Positions 27,711 through 51,232 of a stretch of DNA of 64,000 nt are shown here, piece after piece; the first letter of the stretch is position 1; every line of letters begins with the position of its first letter. The translations under genes and the position numbers were made by a program. The DNA is from a virus (taxonomy: Duplodnaviria; Caudoviricetes), in the IMG/VR virus record IMGVR_UViG_3300049988_000286, positions 352,001 through 416,000 of that record, one strand, 5' to 3'. Under the pieces are notes generated by a model, which was given only the letters and a program-made list of their open reading frames with translations, did not search any database and was not told the DNA's origin.

Positions 27711-27964
27711 TGTCGGTCCTAGTTCACGTTAACCGATCCCACATAGCGATGAACGCCAAGGATGGCGGCAATCGACCCGTCTATACTGTGAAGATGAAGG
27801 GGCGCACGCGTTACGCGCGTGAGGTGATCATCCATGGTCCTTCTCGGATGGTCTACGATGGCACGCAATTGAGTTGCGGGGCACGGGCTTGGTTGATCAG
27901 TGATGCAGAGGTCACGCTCGTGGATGAAATGTCTTTCCAAGAGGCCAGACTTGCCGTAGAGTAG
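27710..27964 (+). CDS. conserved phage hypothetical protein
   Basis: VHVNRSHI...GPSRMVY...LSCGARAW. Confidence 0.75.
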   Translation: MSVLVHVNRSHIAMNAKDGGNRPVYTVKMKGRTRYAREVIIHGPSRMVYDGTQLSCGARAWLISDAEVTLVDEMSFQEARLAVE

Positions 27965-27981
27965 TGGGGAAAGGTTCTCTG

Positions 27982-30717
27982 ATGGTTGATTATCGCCCCA
28001 CCGTGACTGTTCCGAAGACGCCGCTGCCCACGAAGGCGCGGATCGCCGATGAGCCTCGTCAGGTCGAGGCGTGGGCGGGTCTCCATGATCGCCTCGCTGC
28101 GAAGAACGAGGGTCGCCCAACTTACCTCCTCCACGACGGCCCCCCGTACGCGAACGGCAACATCCACATGGGGCACGCGCTCAACAAGGTGCTCAAGGAC
28201 GTGATCTGCCGGGGGCAGCGCGCTCTCGGCTTCGATGCTCGTCTGCACGCGGGGTGGGACTGTCGTGGTCTTCCAATCGAGTGGAAGGTCGAAGAGGATT
28301 GGCGCAAGCAGAAGCGTGACAAGAATGCCGAGCCGGAAGCATTTCGGCAGGATTGCCGCGACTATGCGGCACGGTGGGTGGATGTCCAGAAGGAGCAGTT
28401 CAAGCGGCTGGGGATCGTCGCCGACTGGGAGTCCGCGCCCTACGGTCATGGTTACCGCACGATGTCGCCCGAGATGTCGAGCCTGATCGTTTACCGCTTT
28501 CACCGCATGGTGGAGCGCGGCGATGTGTATTCGGCCAAGAAGCCGGTGTTGTGGAGTCATGTCGAGCGCACCGCTATGGCGGAGGCGGAGACCGTGGATC
28601 GCGAGCATCAGGTCGAACAGGCGTGGGTGACCTTCCGGATGTTCGCAGGGCCGCTCAAGGGCGACGATCTCCTTGTCTGGACCACCACGCCTTGGAGCCT
28701 TCCGAGCAATGTCGCGGTCGCGTACAACCCTGACATCGCCTACGGGCTTTACGAACAGCGCGGACGCCGGTTCGTGGTTGCCGACAGTTGTGTGGAACGC
28801 GCGCTGCAAAATGATTATCAGCGCCTCCGCGACATCGATCCGAAGACGGACTTCCCGCGCCATGCAGAGCATCCCCTGAACGATCTCGGCTACCCGGTTG
28901 GTGAGGACTGCGTGTCGCGGATCATGCCGGCATCCTTCGTCCGCGACAGTGCGGGAACGGGTCTTGTCCATGTCGCCCCCAGTCATTCCCGTGATGACTG
29001 GGAGGCTTGGAAGGCGCTCGATCACACGTTGACCTTCCCGACGACGATCAACGAGGATGGGCGCTACCACGACAGCCTTCCGCTGTTCGGCGGCACGGCG
29101 GTGGTCAAGGGCAAACGCCTCGGTCCCGCGAACGAGATGGTGCTCGATGCCATGGCGGAGCGTGGTACGCTCTACCGGCGCGAGACTGCTCCCCTGACCT
29201 TGCAGCACTCTTGGCGCAGCGACGCGGTTCTCCTCACGCTCGCCACTGATCAGTGGTTCATCCGCGTCACCGGGGAGGGCGGCGTGGTTGAACGTGTGCT
29301 TGCGGGATTGGCGGAGGTTGAGTTCTCCCCATCCAGCGGCGGCACGCGCATGGCCTCGATGCTGCGCGATCGTCCCGATTGGCTGGTGTCTCGTCAGCGC
29401 CTGTGGGGCACCCCCATGGCCATCTTGGCGCATCGTCGCACCGGCGAGCCCTGCCGTGATCCGGCCGTCTTGGGAGCGATCCATCAAGAGTTGATGGATC
29501 GTGGGGCGGATGCGTGGTGGAGCGAGTTCTCGGTTGAGGACATGTTCGCAGCGATCGGTCGCCCCGACGAGGCCAAGGACTGGCGGCGCGTCGATGACGT
29601 GCTCGATGTCTGGTTCGATTCTGCGTGTGTGCACGCCATCACTGGTGAGCGTGCCGATCTTGTCGTCGAGGGGAGTGATCAGAGCCGTGGCTGGTTCCAG
29701 AGCAGCGCTCTCGAAGGCATGGCCAACGATGGCGTGCTCCCGTACCGGGAAGTGCTCACCCACGGTTTCGTCCTTGACGGATCGGGGCGCAAGATGTCGA
29801 AGTCGGAGGGGAACGTCATTGATCCCATGACGGTGGTAGATCGTCTTGGCGCGGATGCGGTTCGTGTCTGGGTAGCTGCCACCGACGTTCGCGAAGACCT
29901 TCGTGTCAGTGATGCGGTGTTAGCCACCCATGCCGAGACGGTTCGCAAGGTCCGTATCACGCTTCGCTACCTCGTCGCGGCGCTGGCGGGTGTTACCGTT
30001 ACGCACGATCGGGTGATCGTCGATCCCCTCAACCGCTATGTGCTCAATCGTGTCGCGCATACCAGTGACGCGTTGTTCGCCATGCTGGCGGAGAAGGACT
30101 TCACCCGCTACGTGGCGACGATCGCGAATTTCTGCGCCAATGATCTCTCCGCCCTGCTGTTCGATGCCCGCAAGGACATCCTCTACTGCGACGGGCCGAG
30201 TGCGCGACGGGATGATTATCTCGCAACGCTCTCGGAGGTGTTTGAGCATCTGGTTCGCTGGGCGGCTCCCGTGATGGTTTTCGCGGCGGAGGAGATGTGG
30301 CAAGCCCTCCATCCAGAATCGAGCGTGCACGAGCAAGACTGGCTCCATCCCCACTGGTTGTGGAACGACGAGCGGTTGATGGAACGGTGGGCGAAGGTGC
30401 TCGATTATCGCTCGGAGATGTTGGGCAAGATTGAGGAAGTGCGTGCGGCGGGTGCGGTGAAGTCTAGCCTTGAATGCCATCTCACTGTCTTCGCCGATCC
30501 AGCGGCACGCCAGCACATGCTTGGGATCGATATGGCGGAACTCACCCTCACGGCTGGGGTGGATATCCGCTCCTTGGAGGGGCGCTTTACCGCACCGACC
30601 AACACTGTGGTGGAGCGTGTCACCACGCCGCGCTGTGACCGGTGCTGGCGGCACGTCGAGGTCGAGGCTGTCGAGGACTCGCATCTCTGTGATCGGTGCG
30701 CGGAGGTTGTGGCGTGA
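27982..30717 (+). CDS. ileS: isoleucyl-tRNA synthetase, type 1
   Basis: PYANGNIHMGH, WTTTPW and GTGLVH editing motifs, SRQR, KMSKS, C-terminal CDRC..CDRC zinc finger. Confidence 0.95.
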   Translation: MVDYRPTVTVPKTPLPTKARIADEPRQVEAWAGLHDRLAAKNEGRPTYLLHDGPPYANGNIHMGHALNKVLKDVICRGQRALGFDARLHAGWDCRGLPIEWKVEEDWRKQKRDKNAEPEAFRQDCRDYAARWVDVQKEQFKRLGIVADWESAPYGHGYRTMSPEMSSLIVYRFHRMVERGDVYSAKKPVLWSHVERTAMAEAETVDREHQVEQAWVTFRMFAGPLKGDDLLVWTTTPWSLPSNVAVAYNPDIAYGLYEQRGRRFVVADSCVERALQNDYQRLRDIDPKTDFPRHAEHPLNDLGYPVGEDCVSRIMPASFVRDSAGTGLVHVAPSHSRDDWEAWKALDHTLTFPTTINEDGRYHDSLPLFGGTAVVKGKRLGPANEMVLDAMAERGTLYRRETAPLTLQHSWRSDAVLLTLATDQWFIRVTGEGGVVERVLAGLAEVEFSPSSGGTRMASMLRDRPDWLVSRQRLWGTPMAILAHRRTGEPCRDPAVLGAIHQELMDRGADAWWSEFSVEDMFAAIGRPDEAKDWRRVDDVLDVWFDSACVHAITGERADLVVEGSDQSRGWFQSSALEGMANDGVLPYREVLTHGFVLDGSGRKMSKSEGNVIDPMTVVDRLGADAVRVWVAATDVREDLRVSDAVLATHAETVRKVRITLRYLVAALAGVTVTHDRVIVDPLNRYVLNRVAHTSDALFAMLAEKDFTRYVATIANFCANDLSALLFDARKDILYCDGPSARRDDYLATLSEVFEHLVRWAAPVMVFAAEEMWQALHPESSVHEQDWLHPHWLWNDERLMERWAKVLDYRSEMLGKIEEVRAAGAVKSSLECHLTVFADPAARQHMLGIDMAELTLTAGVDIRSLEGRFTAPTNTVVERVTTPRCDRCWRHVEVEAVEDSHLCDRCAEVVA

Positions 30718-39691: not shown

Positions 39692-39957
39692 AGCCAGACC
39701 TTCCGCCCCCGGCAATCCGCGCTATGCTCCACCGCTGCGATCTTGAACAAGGCGGCGTTGCCGTCGTCGCGGAAGTATAACAAGGCGGCGTTATTACGAT
39801 CAACGACGTGCCTCATATACTGGTCTTCGGGCACGTTCTCTTCACACCATGCCAATACAGCCTCGATCTTCTCCGCGATATTGTCTGGATAGCGGAGCCG
39901 GTGGAAGACGAATTTGGTCCACTCCTCGCCGGTGAGGAGTTCCCGTCGATACCTCAC
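39688..39957 (-). CDS. paralog family A protein
   Basis: AWCEENV and LYFRDDGNAALFKI motifs. Confidence 0.7.
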   Translation of the reverse strand: MRYRRELLTGEEWTKFVFHRLRYPDNIAEKIEAVLAWCEENVPEDQYMRHVVDRNNAALLYFRDDGNAALFKIAAVEHSADCRGRKVWL

Positions 39958-40532
39958 GTCAGGGTCCGCAAACCCGTGACATCCTCGTCGAGATCGATCT
40001 CGTGAACGGGACCAAGACCAAGACAGGTGATCGTCGGCTTCGGGCTGCCGTCATCGTTCTTGAAGACCGTCAGACCCGCGTCCTTGACCAACGAGACGCC
40101 GCAACGCTCGCGATACTTGGCTTCCAAGGCGATCAACTCCGCCTCCGTGGGGACCACCAGCGTGATCTTGAAGGCGCGCTGACTACCCCGATACGAGGCT
40201 GCCACGAGGGGGAAACGCAGAAGGCTGTCCCAATACGCATGGACGTACCCGTGCCCCCCTTGCGTGATCATCTTGCCCCGCACCCCCTTCATCTGGTCCA
40301 AGGCTTCTTTGGAAAAGATGCAATATTGCTTCAGTTTGACGCCCCGATAGCGAGCCATCCACGCCCGTTGCAGCCGCCAGCGATCCATTCCATAGTAGAG
40401 GACGCCCCCTACGGCGAGCAGAATACCACCGAGATGGGAGAAATTGTCCCCGACGAGCGCGCCGGTGATGACGAGGCCAAGTAGCCACACCTGACCGCGC
40501 TTGCGCTGTTCCTGAAATTCACCTGCCATCAT
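39954..40532 (-). CDS. peptidyl-tRNA hydrolase type 2 with an N-terminal membrane segment
   Basis: GKMITQGGHG, FKITL, DAGLT and TCLGLGP Pth2 motifs. Confidence 0.8.
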   Translation of the reverse strand: MMAGEFQEQRKRGQVWLLGLVITGALVGDNFSHLGGILLAVGGVLYYGMDRWRLQRAWMARYRGVKLKQYCIFSKEALDQMKGVRGKMITQGGHGYVHAYWDSLLRFPLVAASYRGSQRAFKITLVVPTEAELIALEAKYRERCGVSLVKDAGLTVFKNDDGSPKPTITCLGLGPVHEIDLDEDVTGLRTLT

Positions 40533-40536
40533 CGCC

Positions 40537-41019
40537 CTACCTTGTGAAATTTAGATCAAAGAGCACCCGGTCGCCATCATCGGCGAAGGAGAACATCTCC
40601 GCGACGATCCACCTACCCGATATCTGCTCGCAGCACCACCAATAAGCGTCGATGCAACGCTGATCGAAATAGTGGATAAAGTCGCTCGTGAACCAAGTGC
40701 CGGTCTTGAGATGCGAGTCGAAGTGCTCGGGATCGTAGAGGCCCATGCGGTCCAGCAGTGCACGGCTTGAACGATCTTGCTGCGCCTCGCTGAACCCGCG
40801 CCGCCATTCTTCATTATTGAGTCGCGTCGCCGCGCAGTAGCGGACCCAATCAGGGTCGGTGATACGTCCCGGCTGTTGCACATAGGGTCCGCCGGGATTG
40901 TAGTCCTTGGTCCATTTCTCGCCAGTCTTGTAGCCCTGCTCCCAGCTTTGCCGAGCCGTCACCTTGTAGCGACGGAACGGCGCATCCCGCGAGATCATGT
41001 TGGGCGACTTCAATGGCAT
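40537..41019 (-). CDS. paralog family A protein (extended)
   Basis: WCCEQISGRW and FSFADDGDRVLFDLNF motifs. Confidence 0.7.
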   Translation of the reverse strand: MPLKSPNMISRDAPFRRYKVTARQSWEQGYKTGEKWTKDYNPGGPYVQQPGRITDPDWVRYCAATRLNNEEWRRGFSEAQQDRSSRALLDRMGLYDPEHFDSHLKTGTWFTSDFIHYFDQRCIDAYWWCCEQISGRWIVAEMFSFADDGDRVLFDLNFTR

Positions 41020-41054: not shown

Positions 41055-41149
41055 TGGTACGCCCGGAGGGATTCGAACCCCCAACCGTTCCGCGATCTGC
41101 GGATCATGAGGTATAAGCTCACCGCTCTAACCAATTGAGCTACGGGCGC
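41055..41149 (-). tRNA. tRNA-Ile(UAU) with a long variable region (95 nt)
   Basis: GCGCCCG/CGGGCGT acceptor, canonical D-arm, GTGAG-CTTATAC-CTCAT anticodon arm, 23-nt variable region, TTCGAAT T-loop, CCA. Confidence 0.85.
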
Positions 41150-41206
41150 ACGAGAGCCTTGTGGCTCGATCGTCGTCGTAGCTTCATATCAACTGGTGCA
41201 TGTCTC

Positions 41207-41212
41207 TATTTA
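41207..41212 (-). promoter_or_regulatory. late promoter TAAATA upstream of tRNA-Ile(UAU)
   Basis: Overlaps the upstream stop codon; 57 nt before the tRNA 5' end. Confidence 0.6.
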
Positions 41213-41572
41213 GCGCAACGCCGCGTGGCGCGCAATAAGGATCGAGGGTAACCCCCGGCCGCGCTGCTGGCATGACCAATCCCCATACCCATCATAAGTG
41301 AGCGCGGGTTCGAGAAGTTGCAGCAAGGGTACATCGCTCTCGTCAGCGACGAACGCGAGGAAATGATTGTGCTCGACGCCGTAGCGGAACATCGCCTCTT
41401 CGCTATTCAGCCGAAGCCAAGTATCTACCTTCTCGGCCATCAGGTAGAAGGGCGGCATATCGGCGACGCTCACCGTCTTCTTTTCGTTCCAGCCCCGAAT
41501 GTAGTAGGACAAACGATGCCAACTCCGGTTGATCAACCGAGTATAGGAAAAGCGTGTCGTATCTCGGTTCAT
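41210..41572 (-). CDS. paralog family A-like protein
   Basis: DTWLRLN and AFVADESDVPLL motifs; ATGA overlap. Confidence 0.65.
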   Translation of the reverse strand: MNRDTTRFSYTRLINRSWHRLSYYIRGWNEKKTVSVADMPPFYLMAEKVDTWLRLNSEEAMFRYGVEHNHFLAFVADESDVPLLQLLEPALTYDGYGDWSCQQRGRGLPSILIARHAALR

Positions 41573-41781
41573 GCAAAACGCATGTAGCACAGACGAGCGT
41601 CATCTTCACGCAGGAATTTGGCATCATGAGCACCGACCATGAAGTCCGTGCCATAACTCCCCTCTACGTTGTCGCGCATCCAATATTCGATCGTGCGAGC
41701 AAATGCTGGATCATCGATTAACATCTCGGTGAAGATCACTCGCCATTCAGTCCAAAACTGCCCGACAGCGATTGCCCTCAT
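41569..41781 (-). CDS. paralog family A protein
   Basis: WMRDNVEG and FLREDDARLCYMRFA motifs. Confidence 0.7.
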   Translation of the reverse strand: MRAIAVGQFWTEWRVIFTEMLIDDPAFARTIEYWMRDNVEGSYGTDFMVGAHDAKFLREDDARLCYMRFA

Positions 41782-50969: not shown

Positions 50970-51045
50970 TGGCAGGAGCGCCGAGACTCGAACTCGGAAC
51001 CTACGGGATTGGAAGCCGGTGCTCTACCAATTGAGCTACACTCCT
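50970..51045 (-). tRNA. tRNA-Trp(CCA)
   Basis: A1-U72 and G73 identity elements, TTCCAAT loop; anticodon stem has only 3 pairs. Confidence 0.75.
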
Positions 51046-51052
51046 ACAGTCA

Positions 51053-51126
51053 TGGTTGGCACGGGTGGTAATGCTCCACCGTCTCGGCTTTATCAGAACC
51101 TTGCTCTACTTTTGAGCTACGCGCCA
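51053..51126 (-). tRNA. tRNA-Ile(GAU), atypical elbow
   Basis: CTGATAA loop, T-loop AGCATTA, D-loop AAAAGTA, CCA. Confidence 0.8.
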
Positions 51127-51156: not shown

Positions 51157-51232
51157 TGGTGGTGACGGCTGGGCTCGAACCAGCGACATACGCGTCATCA
51201 ACACGTCGTTCTTCCAACTGAACTACGCCACC
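51157..51232 (-). tRNA. tRNA-Ile(GAU) with G37
   Basis: ACGTG-TTGATGA-CGCGT anticodon arm, canonical D and T arms, CCA. Confidence 0.85.

Follow-up and report, generated by a model that had tools for sequence, protein, structure and literature searches.

A phage tRNA(UAU) with an extra hairpin displaying GAU, a probable isoleucine tRNA for AUA codons

In the window analysed here, a stretch of 64,000 nt (bases 352001-416000) of an IMG/VR virus record of 499,572 bp that is rated complete, we detected a tRNA(UAU) gene whose variable region contains an extra hairpin with the triplet GAU at the centre of its loop (Table 1). Very probably, this gene encodes an isoleucine-accepting decoder of AUA that belongs to a class of tRNA(UAU) with the same arm (the GAU arm), and that would be expressed and charged with isoleucine during infection of the host by the phage. 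No sense codon is harder to decode than AUA: the tRNA that does so must be charged with isoleucine and yet be kept off AUG, for which cells depend on lysidine, agmatidine or an isoleucyl-tRNA synthetase (IleRS) that is specially adapted. A GAU hairpin beside a UAU anticodon suggests a third solution, one that is encoded in the tRNA and portable between hosts. If true, natural lysidine-free decoding of AUA would be open to phages in any host; it would also explain why phages often carry tRNA(UAU) and would provide synthetic biology with a natural means to separate the identity of a tRNA from its anticodon. The GAU-arm design is common to hundreds of phages and some bacteria and is apparently undescribed in print. 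The literature that we covered on phage tRNA-Ile(UAU) and long variable arms, which is an incomplete part of the whole, describes no arm showing GAU, and a description elsewhere is possible.

The tRNA(UAU) gene and the phage genome

The record has a GC content of about 57%, encodes a T4-type major capsid protein (Pfam Gp23, 243 bits) and contains 41 tRNA genes and one tmRNA, as called by ARAGORN. Genetic code 11 fits the phage genome; alternative codes with TAG or TAA as sense codons were tried, long ORFs were no longer under either of them, and code 11 was kept. Among cultured phages, megablast found no match to the 6 kb around tRNA(UAU), and blastn with the tRNA itself returned just generic similarity in the T arm and acceptor together with two weak full-length matches. 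Five large T4-like related records, reached via the capsid protein, were used for codon comparison, and tRNA(UAU) is absent from all five of these record fragments.

The preliminary description of this DNA had reported a tRNA-Ile(UAU) of 95 nt with a TCCGC/GCGGA hairpin in its variable region and a nearby TAAATA motif, and had referred to an IleRS of the phage. All of these were found: the tRNA by ARAGORN and by the Rfam tRNA model (RF00005; 60.5 bits, E 1.3e-10, gathering score 29), at a score that qualifies it as an elongator tRNA, the hairpin by direct reading, the motif as described, and a gene for IleRS in the window by TIGR00392 and Pfam. In the tRNA, the acceptor stem has 7 bp, the D stem 4 (with an Ile-type D loop of 9 nt) and the anticodon and T stems 5 each, the latter with UUCGAAU. 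The loop that holds the UAU anticodon is 7 nt long and has U33 and A37, as in UAU-type tRNA-Ile that is free of lysidine, and Infernal places the surplus of the molecule as one insertion within the variable region.

The extra hairpin reads UCCG-CAGAUCG-CGGA. The first and last bases of its loop can pair, which leaves a 5-nt loop (AGAUC), and a few relatives can likewise close their extra loop to 5 nt. The layout is tandem, with a first anticodon-like stem-loop that shows UAU and a second that shows GAU. In most phage members of the family the extra loop has A for U33 and U for A37, unlike a true anticodon loop. An intron or another removable insert was considered and is unlikely, judging from the hairpin, which lacks a bulge-helix-bulge shape, and from the conservation, which lies in the loop and not at the ends. 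In a related contig of about 94% identity, we counted 27 differences and 8 indels over 447 nt, none of them within the 95 nt of tRNA(UAU); the minigene and TAAATA upstream of the tRNA (Table 1) are unchanged there as well, and the spacer has one change.

Outside the anticodon, tRNA(UAU) has A73, C4-G69 and U12-A23, which belong to the isoleucine identity set of E. coli (PMC9976931). The C29-G41 and A38 of the same set are replaced by G29-C41 and C38, a difference of low weight as these elements are specific to E. coli. The pair C2-G71, an anti-SerRS element in E. coli tRNA-Leu (PMC9976931), is also present.

Table 1. Features of the tRNA(UAU) locus and the IleRS gene (positions within the window)
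Feature	Position	Strand	Evidence
Isoleucyl-tRNA synthetase, 917 aa, bacterial type 1, C-terminal zinc finger with CDRCW	27964..30717	+	TIGR00392, Pfam
PTH2-type peptidyl-tRNA hydrolase homologue, second gene downstream of tRNA(UAU)	39954..40532	-	Pfam PF01981, 38.7 bits, E 1.3e-9
Gene for a protein of 160 aa without Pfam family, downstream of tRNA(UAU) at a distance of 35 nt	40537..41019	-	ORF
tRNA(UAU) gene, 95 nt, 7/5 cloverleaf, G1.U72, A73, encoded CCA	41055..41149	-	ARAGORN tRNA-Ile(tat), Rfam tRNA, direct reading
Variable region, 23 nt: 2-nt linker, extra hairpin, 6-nt tail ACGGUU	41083..41105	-	Infernal insertion, family alignment
Extra hairpin, UCCG/CGGA stem plus C-G pair, loop (C)AGAUC(G)	41089..41103	-	Present in both RNAfold runs
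GAU triplet, centre of extra loop, invariant in aligned family	41095..41097	-	Family alignment
Anticodon UAU in loop CUUAUAC (U33, A37)	41113..41115	-	ARAGORN, Rfam, direct reading
Small hairpin GAGCC-ACAA-GGCUC in the 34-nt spacer	41154..41167	-	Sequence, RNAfold
Putative minigene ATG CAC CAG TTG ATA TGA (MHQLI-stop)	41184..41201	-	Starts 5 nt after TAAATA; promoter/start cassette as in about 68 genes
TAAATA late-promoter-like motif; its TAA doubles as the stop of the upstream gene	41207..41212	-	Genome-wide enrichment, fixed TAAATA-N4/5-ATG spacing
Gene for a protein of 126 aa without Pfam family, upstream; its stop is the TAA of TAAATA	41210..41590	-	ORF

Distribution and conservation of the GAU arm

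We scanned IMG/VR with a pattern that leaves the arm itself unconstrained (CTTATA, a gap of 24-40 nt, and GGTTCGAATCC of the T arm). In the loci that matched, ARAGORN called 89 tRNA(UAU) genes with a long arm; 77 are distinct, and the predicted arm loop of 72 of these contains GAU. Arm loops of 7 nt are present in 53, the commonest being CAGAUUA (39 times) and UAGAUUU (8 times). As controls, the same loci provided 161 distinct long-armed tRNAs whose anticodon is not UAU; GAU was detected in the loop of one, and 103 have tetraloops.

When the tRNAs were anchored on GAU, the triplet was centred in a 7-nt window Y-A-G-A-U-N-R in 74 of 78 (the present tRNA included). The four positions of the stem that closes this window are paired in 100, 100, 100 and 95%, with up to five pair types per position; a fifth position beyond the stem is paired in only 22%, and controls in which the partner was slid by one or two places gave 11-86%. 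In a formal alignment of 26 members with a canonical body, again including the present tRNA, AGAU is invariant and the extra helix is 96% paired, with three of its four pairs changing on both sides. All five helices covary, the covariation of the extra helix equals that of the four classical ones, and none of 500 shuffles attained any of five whole-structure measures. The 1-72 pair of these members is G.U (17), G-C (5) or A-U (4), and A73 is invariant. The present tRNA has the features of this class, namely UAU together with a GAU-centred loop on a 4-bp covarying stem, as well as the placement of the arm, with a 2-nt 5' linker after the anticodon stem, a 6-nt tail and a U72-A73 end. Family members have either canonical 7/5 bodies or bodies with a long D stem and tetraloop, and the same arm was found in many unrelated viral contigs, some of them 4-6 kb long.

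The reverse scan, for CAGATTA and the T arm with the anticodon left free, gave 122 matches, of which 101 were called as tRNA(UAU). At least seven further copies with odd bodies that were not called contain CTTATA. The remainder comprises five tRNA-Arg(ACG), in which the motif is the anticodon arm, one long-armed tRNA-Leu(UAG) with CAGATTA in its variable region, and other matches where the motif lies in or beside the anticodon loop of a short tRNA or where no tRNA was called. As far as these two scans reach, the coupling of UAU and the GAU arm holds both ways, with tRNA-Leu(UAG) as the one exception.

The same arm-blind pattern was applied to bacteria (one genome per species), where most matches were due to chance. 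It detected 26 long-armed tRNA(UAU) genes, about 16 of them with a GAU loop. Five Actinomyces genomes encode a copy that is very like the phage tRNA and has an identical anticodon arm sequence; its extra arm is GUGC-CUGAUAA-GCAC, the loop of which is the canonical anticodon loop of tRNA-Ile(GAU). A TilS match (PF01171) over the cut-off was found in none of these five genomes and in all 14 control genomes. The IleRS of the Actinomyces genomes is the long type 2 form, with DUF5915 in place of the zinc finger. In at least one lineage lacking TilS, the GAU-arm tRNA(UAU) looks like the chromosomal decoder of AUA, which argues that the class is a working isoleucine tRNA. Absence of TilS was also considered as a general correlate of the GAU arm and fails as such, because TilS is present in 9 of the 10 bacterial carriers outside Actinomyces; tRNA(UAU) is thus not always the sole decoder of AUA.

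Meaning of AUA and charging of the tRNA

A simple gene call (621 genes, 131,422 codons) identified 269 ATA codons in the phage genome, corresponding to 4% of the Ile codons and 0.2% of all codons. Phage proteins were aligned by tblastn to the five T4-like related records, and opposite the 41 aligned ATA sites the relatives have I (.32), L (.21) and V (.15), with Ser outside the eight commonest residues. For comparison, ATC sites show I (.355), V (.21) and L (.15), and ATT sites are similar; Leu codons show L (about.50) and I (about.09), Ser codons S (about.33) and ATG codons M (.29). By log-likelihood, the Ile profile describes the ATA sites best, with a lead of 10 units over Val, 11.8 over Leu, 17.5 over Met and 73 over Ser, and in 98.6% of bootstraps it is ahead of the Leu profile. 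By this comparison AUA is an isoleucine codon in this phage, and the reassignment of AUA that had been raised in the preliminary description is rejected. The test bears on the meaning of the codon in genes and not on which tRNA delivers the amino acid, and a competitor charged with Ser or Leu would harm 269 ATA sites.

Reassignment had been linked to recruitment of SerRS or LeuRS by the long arm, which would result in AUA being recoded or deliberately mistranslated. Precedents for mis-charging are available, in that allo-tRNAs in E. coli deliver Ser to Leu codons (PMC5389517) and leucylation of the nematode nev-tRNA-Ile(UAU) in vitro is reported (PMC4300185); in addition, the A73 of tRNA(UAU) is compatible with LeuRS. 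We nevertheless consider mis-charging most improbable, given the Ile-like ATA sites, the reliance of the TilS-less Actinomyces genomes on the same design, and the body of the tRNA, with A73 and not G73, C2-G71, C4-G69, U12-A23, a 4-bp D stem and an Ile-type D loop. In construction, the arm also differs from those of Ser, Leu and Tyr tRNAs. As in class II tRNAs (Leu, Ser and Tyr of bacteria and phages, 85-95 nt overall), the variable region is long and contains a hairpin, but class II arms have tetraloops and abut the T stem, whereas the GAU arm has a 4-bp stem, a 7-nt loop (5-7 nt here) and a 3' tail of 5-6 nt that resembles an ordinary short variable loop. This tail is 6 nt long in the present tRNA, with a family median of 5 (5-6 typical), compared with 1 nt in Ser, 2 in Leu and 3 in Tyr tRNAs of the same loci. 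With UAU, A73 and C2-G71, the tRNA has neither the anticodon of a Leu, Ser or Tyr tRNA nor the discriminator that goes with it (G73 for Ser). In annotation, long-armed tRNA(UAU) should not be taken as Ser- or Leu-type suppressors or as signs of AUA reassignment.

Two known groups of tRNA share UAU and a long extra arm with the phage tRNA. The allo-tRNA(UAU) described by Mukai et al. 2017 (PMC5389517) are abundant in metagenomes, and many members of the GAU-arm family share their body with a long D stem and tetraloop. Allo-tRNAs have 8/4 or 9/3 acceptor/T stems, a long D stem and a tetraloop, whereas the phage tRNA has 7/5 stems, a 4-bp D stem and a 9-nt loop. In the main text of that study, the arm is treated as a possible SerRS element and GAU in the arm goes unmentioned. 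The second is nev-tRNA-Ile(UAU), which is eukaryotic and reported to be leucylated in vitro via a Leu-type arm (PMC4300185), whereas the codon evidence in the phage is for Ile and the arm is not Leu-like.

The phage IleRS, encoded 10 kb from tRNA(UAU), scores 624.1 bits with TIGR00392 (cut-off 621.4) and contains the Pfam domains tRNA-synt_1, Anticodon_1 and zf-FPG_IleRS. No related locus was found in IMG/VR with this protein as query. Its CDRCW aligns to the CERCW of 1FFY_A, and the Trp is kept at the position of S. aureus W890. This Trp stacks on the wobble base and is replaced by Arg in the IleRS of M. mobile (PMC3575796). The IleRS of E. coli, which is of the Trp type, charges UAU poorly (Taniguchi et al. 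2013, PMC3575796), and its Trp-to-Arg mutation increases the relative kcat/Km for UAU about 10-fold and specificity about 20-fold (PMC3575796). As the phage enzyme keeps Trp and has neither Arg nor Lys in its place, the known enzyme-side adaptation of the M. mobile type is absent, leaving room for a tRNA-side one. The phage genome has no match to the TilS family, in a search in which 14 of 14 control genomes were positive.

The closest functional counterparts are the TilS-independent tRNA-Ile2(UAU) of M. mobile and of Lactobacillus plantarum and casei, which are likewise bacterial-type elongators with an unmodified-type UAU that read AUA without the lysidine system (PMC3575796; Tomikawa 2018 and Uesugi 2022 via PMC9976931). 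As far as they are described there, they are ordinary tRNAs with an extra arm unmentioned, whereas the phage tRNA has the GAU hairpin. The solution of M. mobile lies in the enzyme (Arg for Trp), whereas the phage IleRS retains Trp.

Taken as a whole, our best explanation is a lysidine-free elongator that reads AUA as Ile and offers its GAU hairpin to IleRS, a proposal that we regard as evenly poised. Transcription of the tRNA would start at a T4-type late promoter of its own, with a five-codon minigene ending in AUA placed in front of the tRNA. An ordinary IleRS would read G34-A35-U36 and accept U34 poorly; the extra hairpin would present GAU to IleRS, either that of the phage or that of the host, leading to charging with Ile, and the UAU arm would then decode AUA as Ile without lysidine and independently of TilS. 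A GAU that is conserved in an anticodon-like loop and confined to UAU tRNAs is explained by a reading in which IleRS uses GAU. That the extra arm is a handle for IleRS, which would contact the GAU loop, is a tentative proposal that we place somewhat below even. Rather doubtful is its stronger version, in which two anticodon arms would split the work, IleRS reading the GAU hairpin and the ribosome reading UAU, with identity uncoupled from decoding by a decoy anticodon. On structural reasoning, the hairpin begins at the anticodon-stem junction and is one pair shorter, and its loop could come to lie close to the true anticodon, or take its place through a different stacking.

The arm had been suggested to be an identity element for the IleRS of the phage. 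An identity role is retained here as a candidate, and the notion of a mark private to this enzyme is not, since the arm recurs in unrelated viral contigs and in bacteria with the other type of IleRS; if it is an identity element, it should work for IleRS generally. The arm co-occurs with IleRS of type 1 in the phage and of type 2 in Actinomyces, and is therefore not tied to one type. As the anticodon-binding C-termini of the two types differ, a single docking mode is not obvious.

Length alone is not peculiar to tRNA(UAU) in this genome; its loop content is. Eight other tRNAs with class I anticodons are long too (Met(CAU) 91 nt, Arg(ACG) 91, Asn(GUU) 87 and 89, Cys(GCA) 91, Gln(CUG) 88, Glu(CUC) 85 and Glu(UUC) 84), and most of them exceed the Rfam cut-off. 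Extra arms in eight other nominally short-armed tRNAs could represent one common phage trait, and this speaks for an Ile-accepting AUA decoder whose hairpin serves something other than IleRS, such as a shield against defence nucleases of the host that cut tRNA, a site for a U34 or other modification enzyme, or a device against misreading of AUG. The evidence that AUA means Ile fits such a role equally well, and unmodified UAU misreads AUG on E. coli ribosomes, so that a fidelity device would be useful (PMC3575796). However, the arm loops of the eight other tRNAs are of the GAAA, UUCG or GUAA type, none of them GAU; they show no anticodon and represent a different kind of arm. A role apart from IleRS also leaves unexplained both the near-constant GAU loop, found only with UAU, and the full isoleucine loop CUGAUAA in Actinomyces. 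We regard it as a substantial possibility, although a minority one.

Promoter, minigene and neighbouring genes

TAAATA occurs 171 times in the genome, compared with 31-49 times for three of four hexamers of the same composition and 113 times for the fourth, AATAAT. At 131 of these sites the motif is at least partly outside called genes, and at 68 a called start is no more than 10 nt away; the consensus is CTAAATA-N4-ATG. The Gp23 capsid gene has a copy 27 nt ahead of it, and several more copies stand in front of other tRNA clusters. The T4 late promoter (TATAAATA) is likewise an AT-rich -10-type element before structural and many other genes, and here an element resembling it is enriched before genes, late structural ones included, in a phage with a T4-type capsid. 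It differs from the T4 promoter in its core, (C)TAAATA, and in the ATG that follows only 4-5 nt after it in about 68 cases, which implies leaderless or nearly leaderless messages. The late promoter that the preliminary description had assigned to tRNA(UAU) itself is supported at the level of the motif, which is a genuine promoter-like element throughout the genome. A promoter scan found no sigma-70-like promoter near tRNA(UAU), and a terminator scan found one terminator-like hairpin (41243-41257), inside the upstream gene.

We infer a function for the minigene behind TAAATA, the last sense codon of which (ATA) is the codon read by tRNA(UAU) and which is separated from the 5' end of the tRNA by a 34-nt spacer. 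The small hairpin in this spacer has no U tract and is thus not a terminator by the scan. In the RNAfold prediction for leader and tRNA, the minigene region pairs with the 5' acceptor strand and D arm of the tRNA (-57 kcal/mol, z -2.56); the energy of this duplex was not significant against 1000 shuffled leaders, 472 of which were equally good. Genes headed by TAAATA are not enriched in ATA (3.1% versus 3.7% of Ile codons, p 0.29). With the tRNA, promoter, minigene and an ordinary Trp-type IleRS in one window, the locus lends itself well to testing, since the enzyme and its candidate substrate are available together.

Rare codons in minigenes lead to sequestration of tRNA in the form of peptidyl-tRNA (PMC2490762), and a tRNA-shaped RNA might act outside translation, as a regulator, as a decoy for a host factor or as the partner of the minigene in tRNA sequestration. 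The minigene ending in AUA and a PTH2 homologue adjoin tRNA(UAU), and Mukai et al. suggest that allo-type tRNA(UAU) may not act in translation, six of them having given no Ser-dependent suppression after conversion to CUA (Mukai et al. 2017, PMC5389517). Their reporter needed Ser, however, and insertion of Ile would have been invisible. The 7/5 cloverleaf, which is perfect and has every universal feature of a tRNA, the encoded CCA, the canonical T loop, the covariation of the five helices, the 269 ATA codons of the genome and the retention of the design on the chromosomes of the TilS-less Actinomyces all argue against a role outside translation, which we consider very unlikely.

Of the protein genes around tRNA(UAU), the upstream one is real: where the related contig differs by substitution between 41219 and 41378, it does so at third codon positions of this frame in all 9 cases. 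The gene immediately downstream has no TAAATA of its own and is thus possibly co-transcribed with tRNA(UAU). Beyond it lies the PTH2-type peptidyl-tRNA hydrolase homologue, a notable gene to have beside a minigene given the sequestration of tRNA by rare-codon minigenes.

Long variable arms outside the window

In the phage genome, long variable arms are carried by eight tRNAs with class-I anticodons, all encoded outside the window, and their loops are of the GAAA, UUCG or GUAA type (table). Several of these genes adjoin a normal-length twin with the same anticodon.

Positions of tRNA, tmRNA and other features in the phage genome (499,572-bp record) or the window
Feature	Coordinates	Strand
tRNA-Met(CAU), long arm	genome 25686-25776
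tRNA-Arg(ACG), long arm	genome 26983-27073
tRNA-Asn(GUU), long arm, first	genome 27717-27803
tRNA-Asn(GUU), long arm, second	genome 28227-28315
tRNA-Cys(GCA), long arm	genome 52274-52364
tRNA-Gln(CUG), long arm	genome 68172-68259	minus
tRNA-Glu(CUC), long arm	genome 453376-453460	minus
tRNA-Glu(UUC), long arm	genome 453462-453545	minus
tRNA(CUA), amber-reading	genome 102238-102314	plus
tRNA(CUA), amber-reading	genome 106351-106425	minus
tmRNA (ARAGORN, asterisk-flagged)	genome 15556-15913
tRNA(CCA), Trp	window 50970-51045	minus
tRNA(GAU), additional (Infernal only, 45.5 bits)	window 51056-51126	minus
tRNA-Ile(GAU), normal	window 51157-51232
TAAATA, example	window 51577 (genome 403577)
TAAATA, example	window 41207-41212
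Terminator-like hairpin, T-rich tail	window 41243-41257	minus
PTH2-type peptidyl-tRNA hydrolase homologue (PF01981, E 1.3e-9)	window 39954-40532	minus

The tRNA(UAU) of Actinomyces

In five Actinomyces genomes (L334, L357, L366, L401 and L430), the chromosome carries a tRNA(UAU) gene whose extra arm is GUGC-CUGAUAA-GCAC. No match above cut-off to the lysidine-making enzyme TilS (PF01171) was detected in these five genomes, and their isoleucyl-tRNA synthetases are of type 2 with DUF5915. The genus may rely on this armed tRNA(UAU) to decode AUA.

Amber-reading and aberrant tRNAs

Despite the two tRNAs with anticodon CUA, treating TAG as a sense codon did not lengthen the long open reading frames of the phage genome. 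One CUA tRNA is also present in a relative (G002), and one in G003. The predicted tmRNA has the tag VNDNDIRMAIAA.

In the tRNA(CCA), the mismatches C27.U43 and C31.C39 leave three good pairs in the anticodon stem, and ARAGORN reads its anticodon as four bases. A 2026 paper (PMC13092985) links UGA reading to shortened anticodon stems in tRNA-Trp. The additional tRNA(GAU), whose T loop is abnormal (AGCAUUA), adjoins the normal tRNA-Ile(GAU), which has G at position 37.

TAAATA and the minigene-tRNA unit

In about 68 of the called genes across the genome, TAAATA precedes the start by 4-5 nt, and the consensus is CTAAATA-N4-ATG. Should TAAATA be the late -10 element, many of the late messages would have little or no leader. 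The protein gene upstream of the minigene and its long-armed tRNA(UAU) contains the terminator-like hairpin within its 3' end, about 30 nt before their TAAATA. The PTH2 homologue is encoded two genes downstream of this unit.
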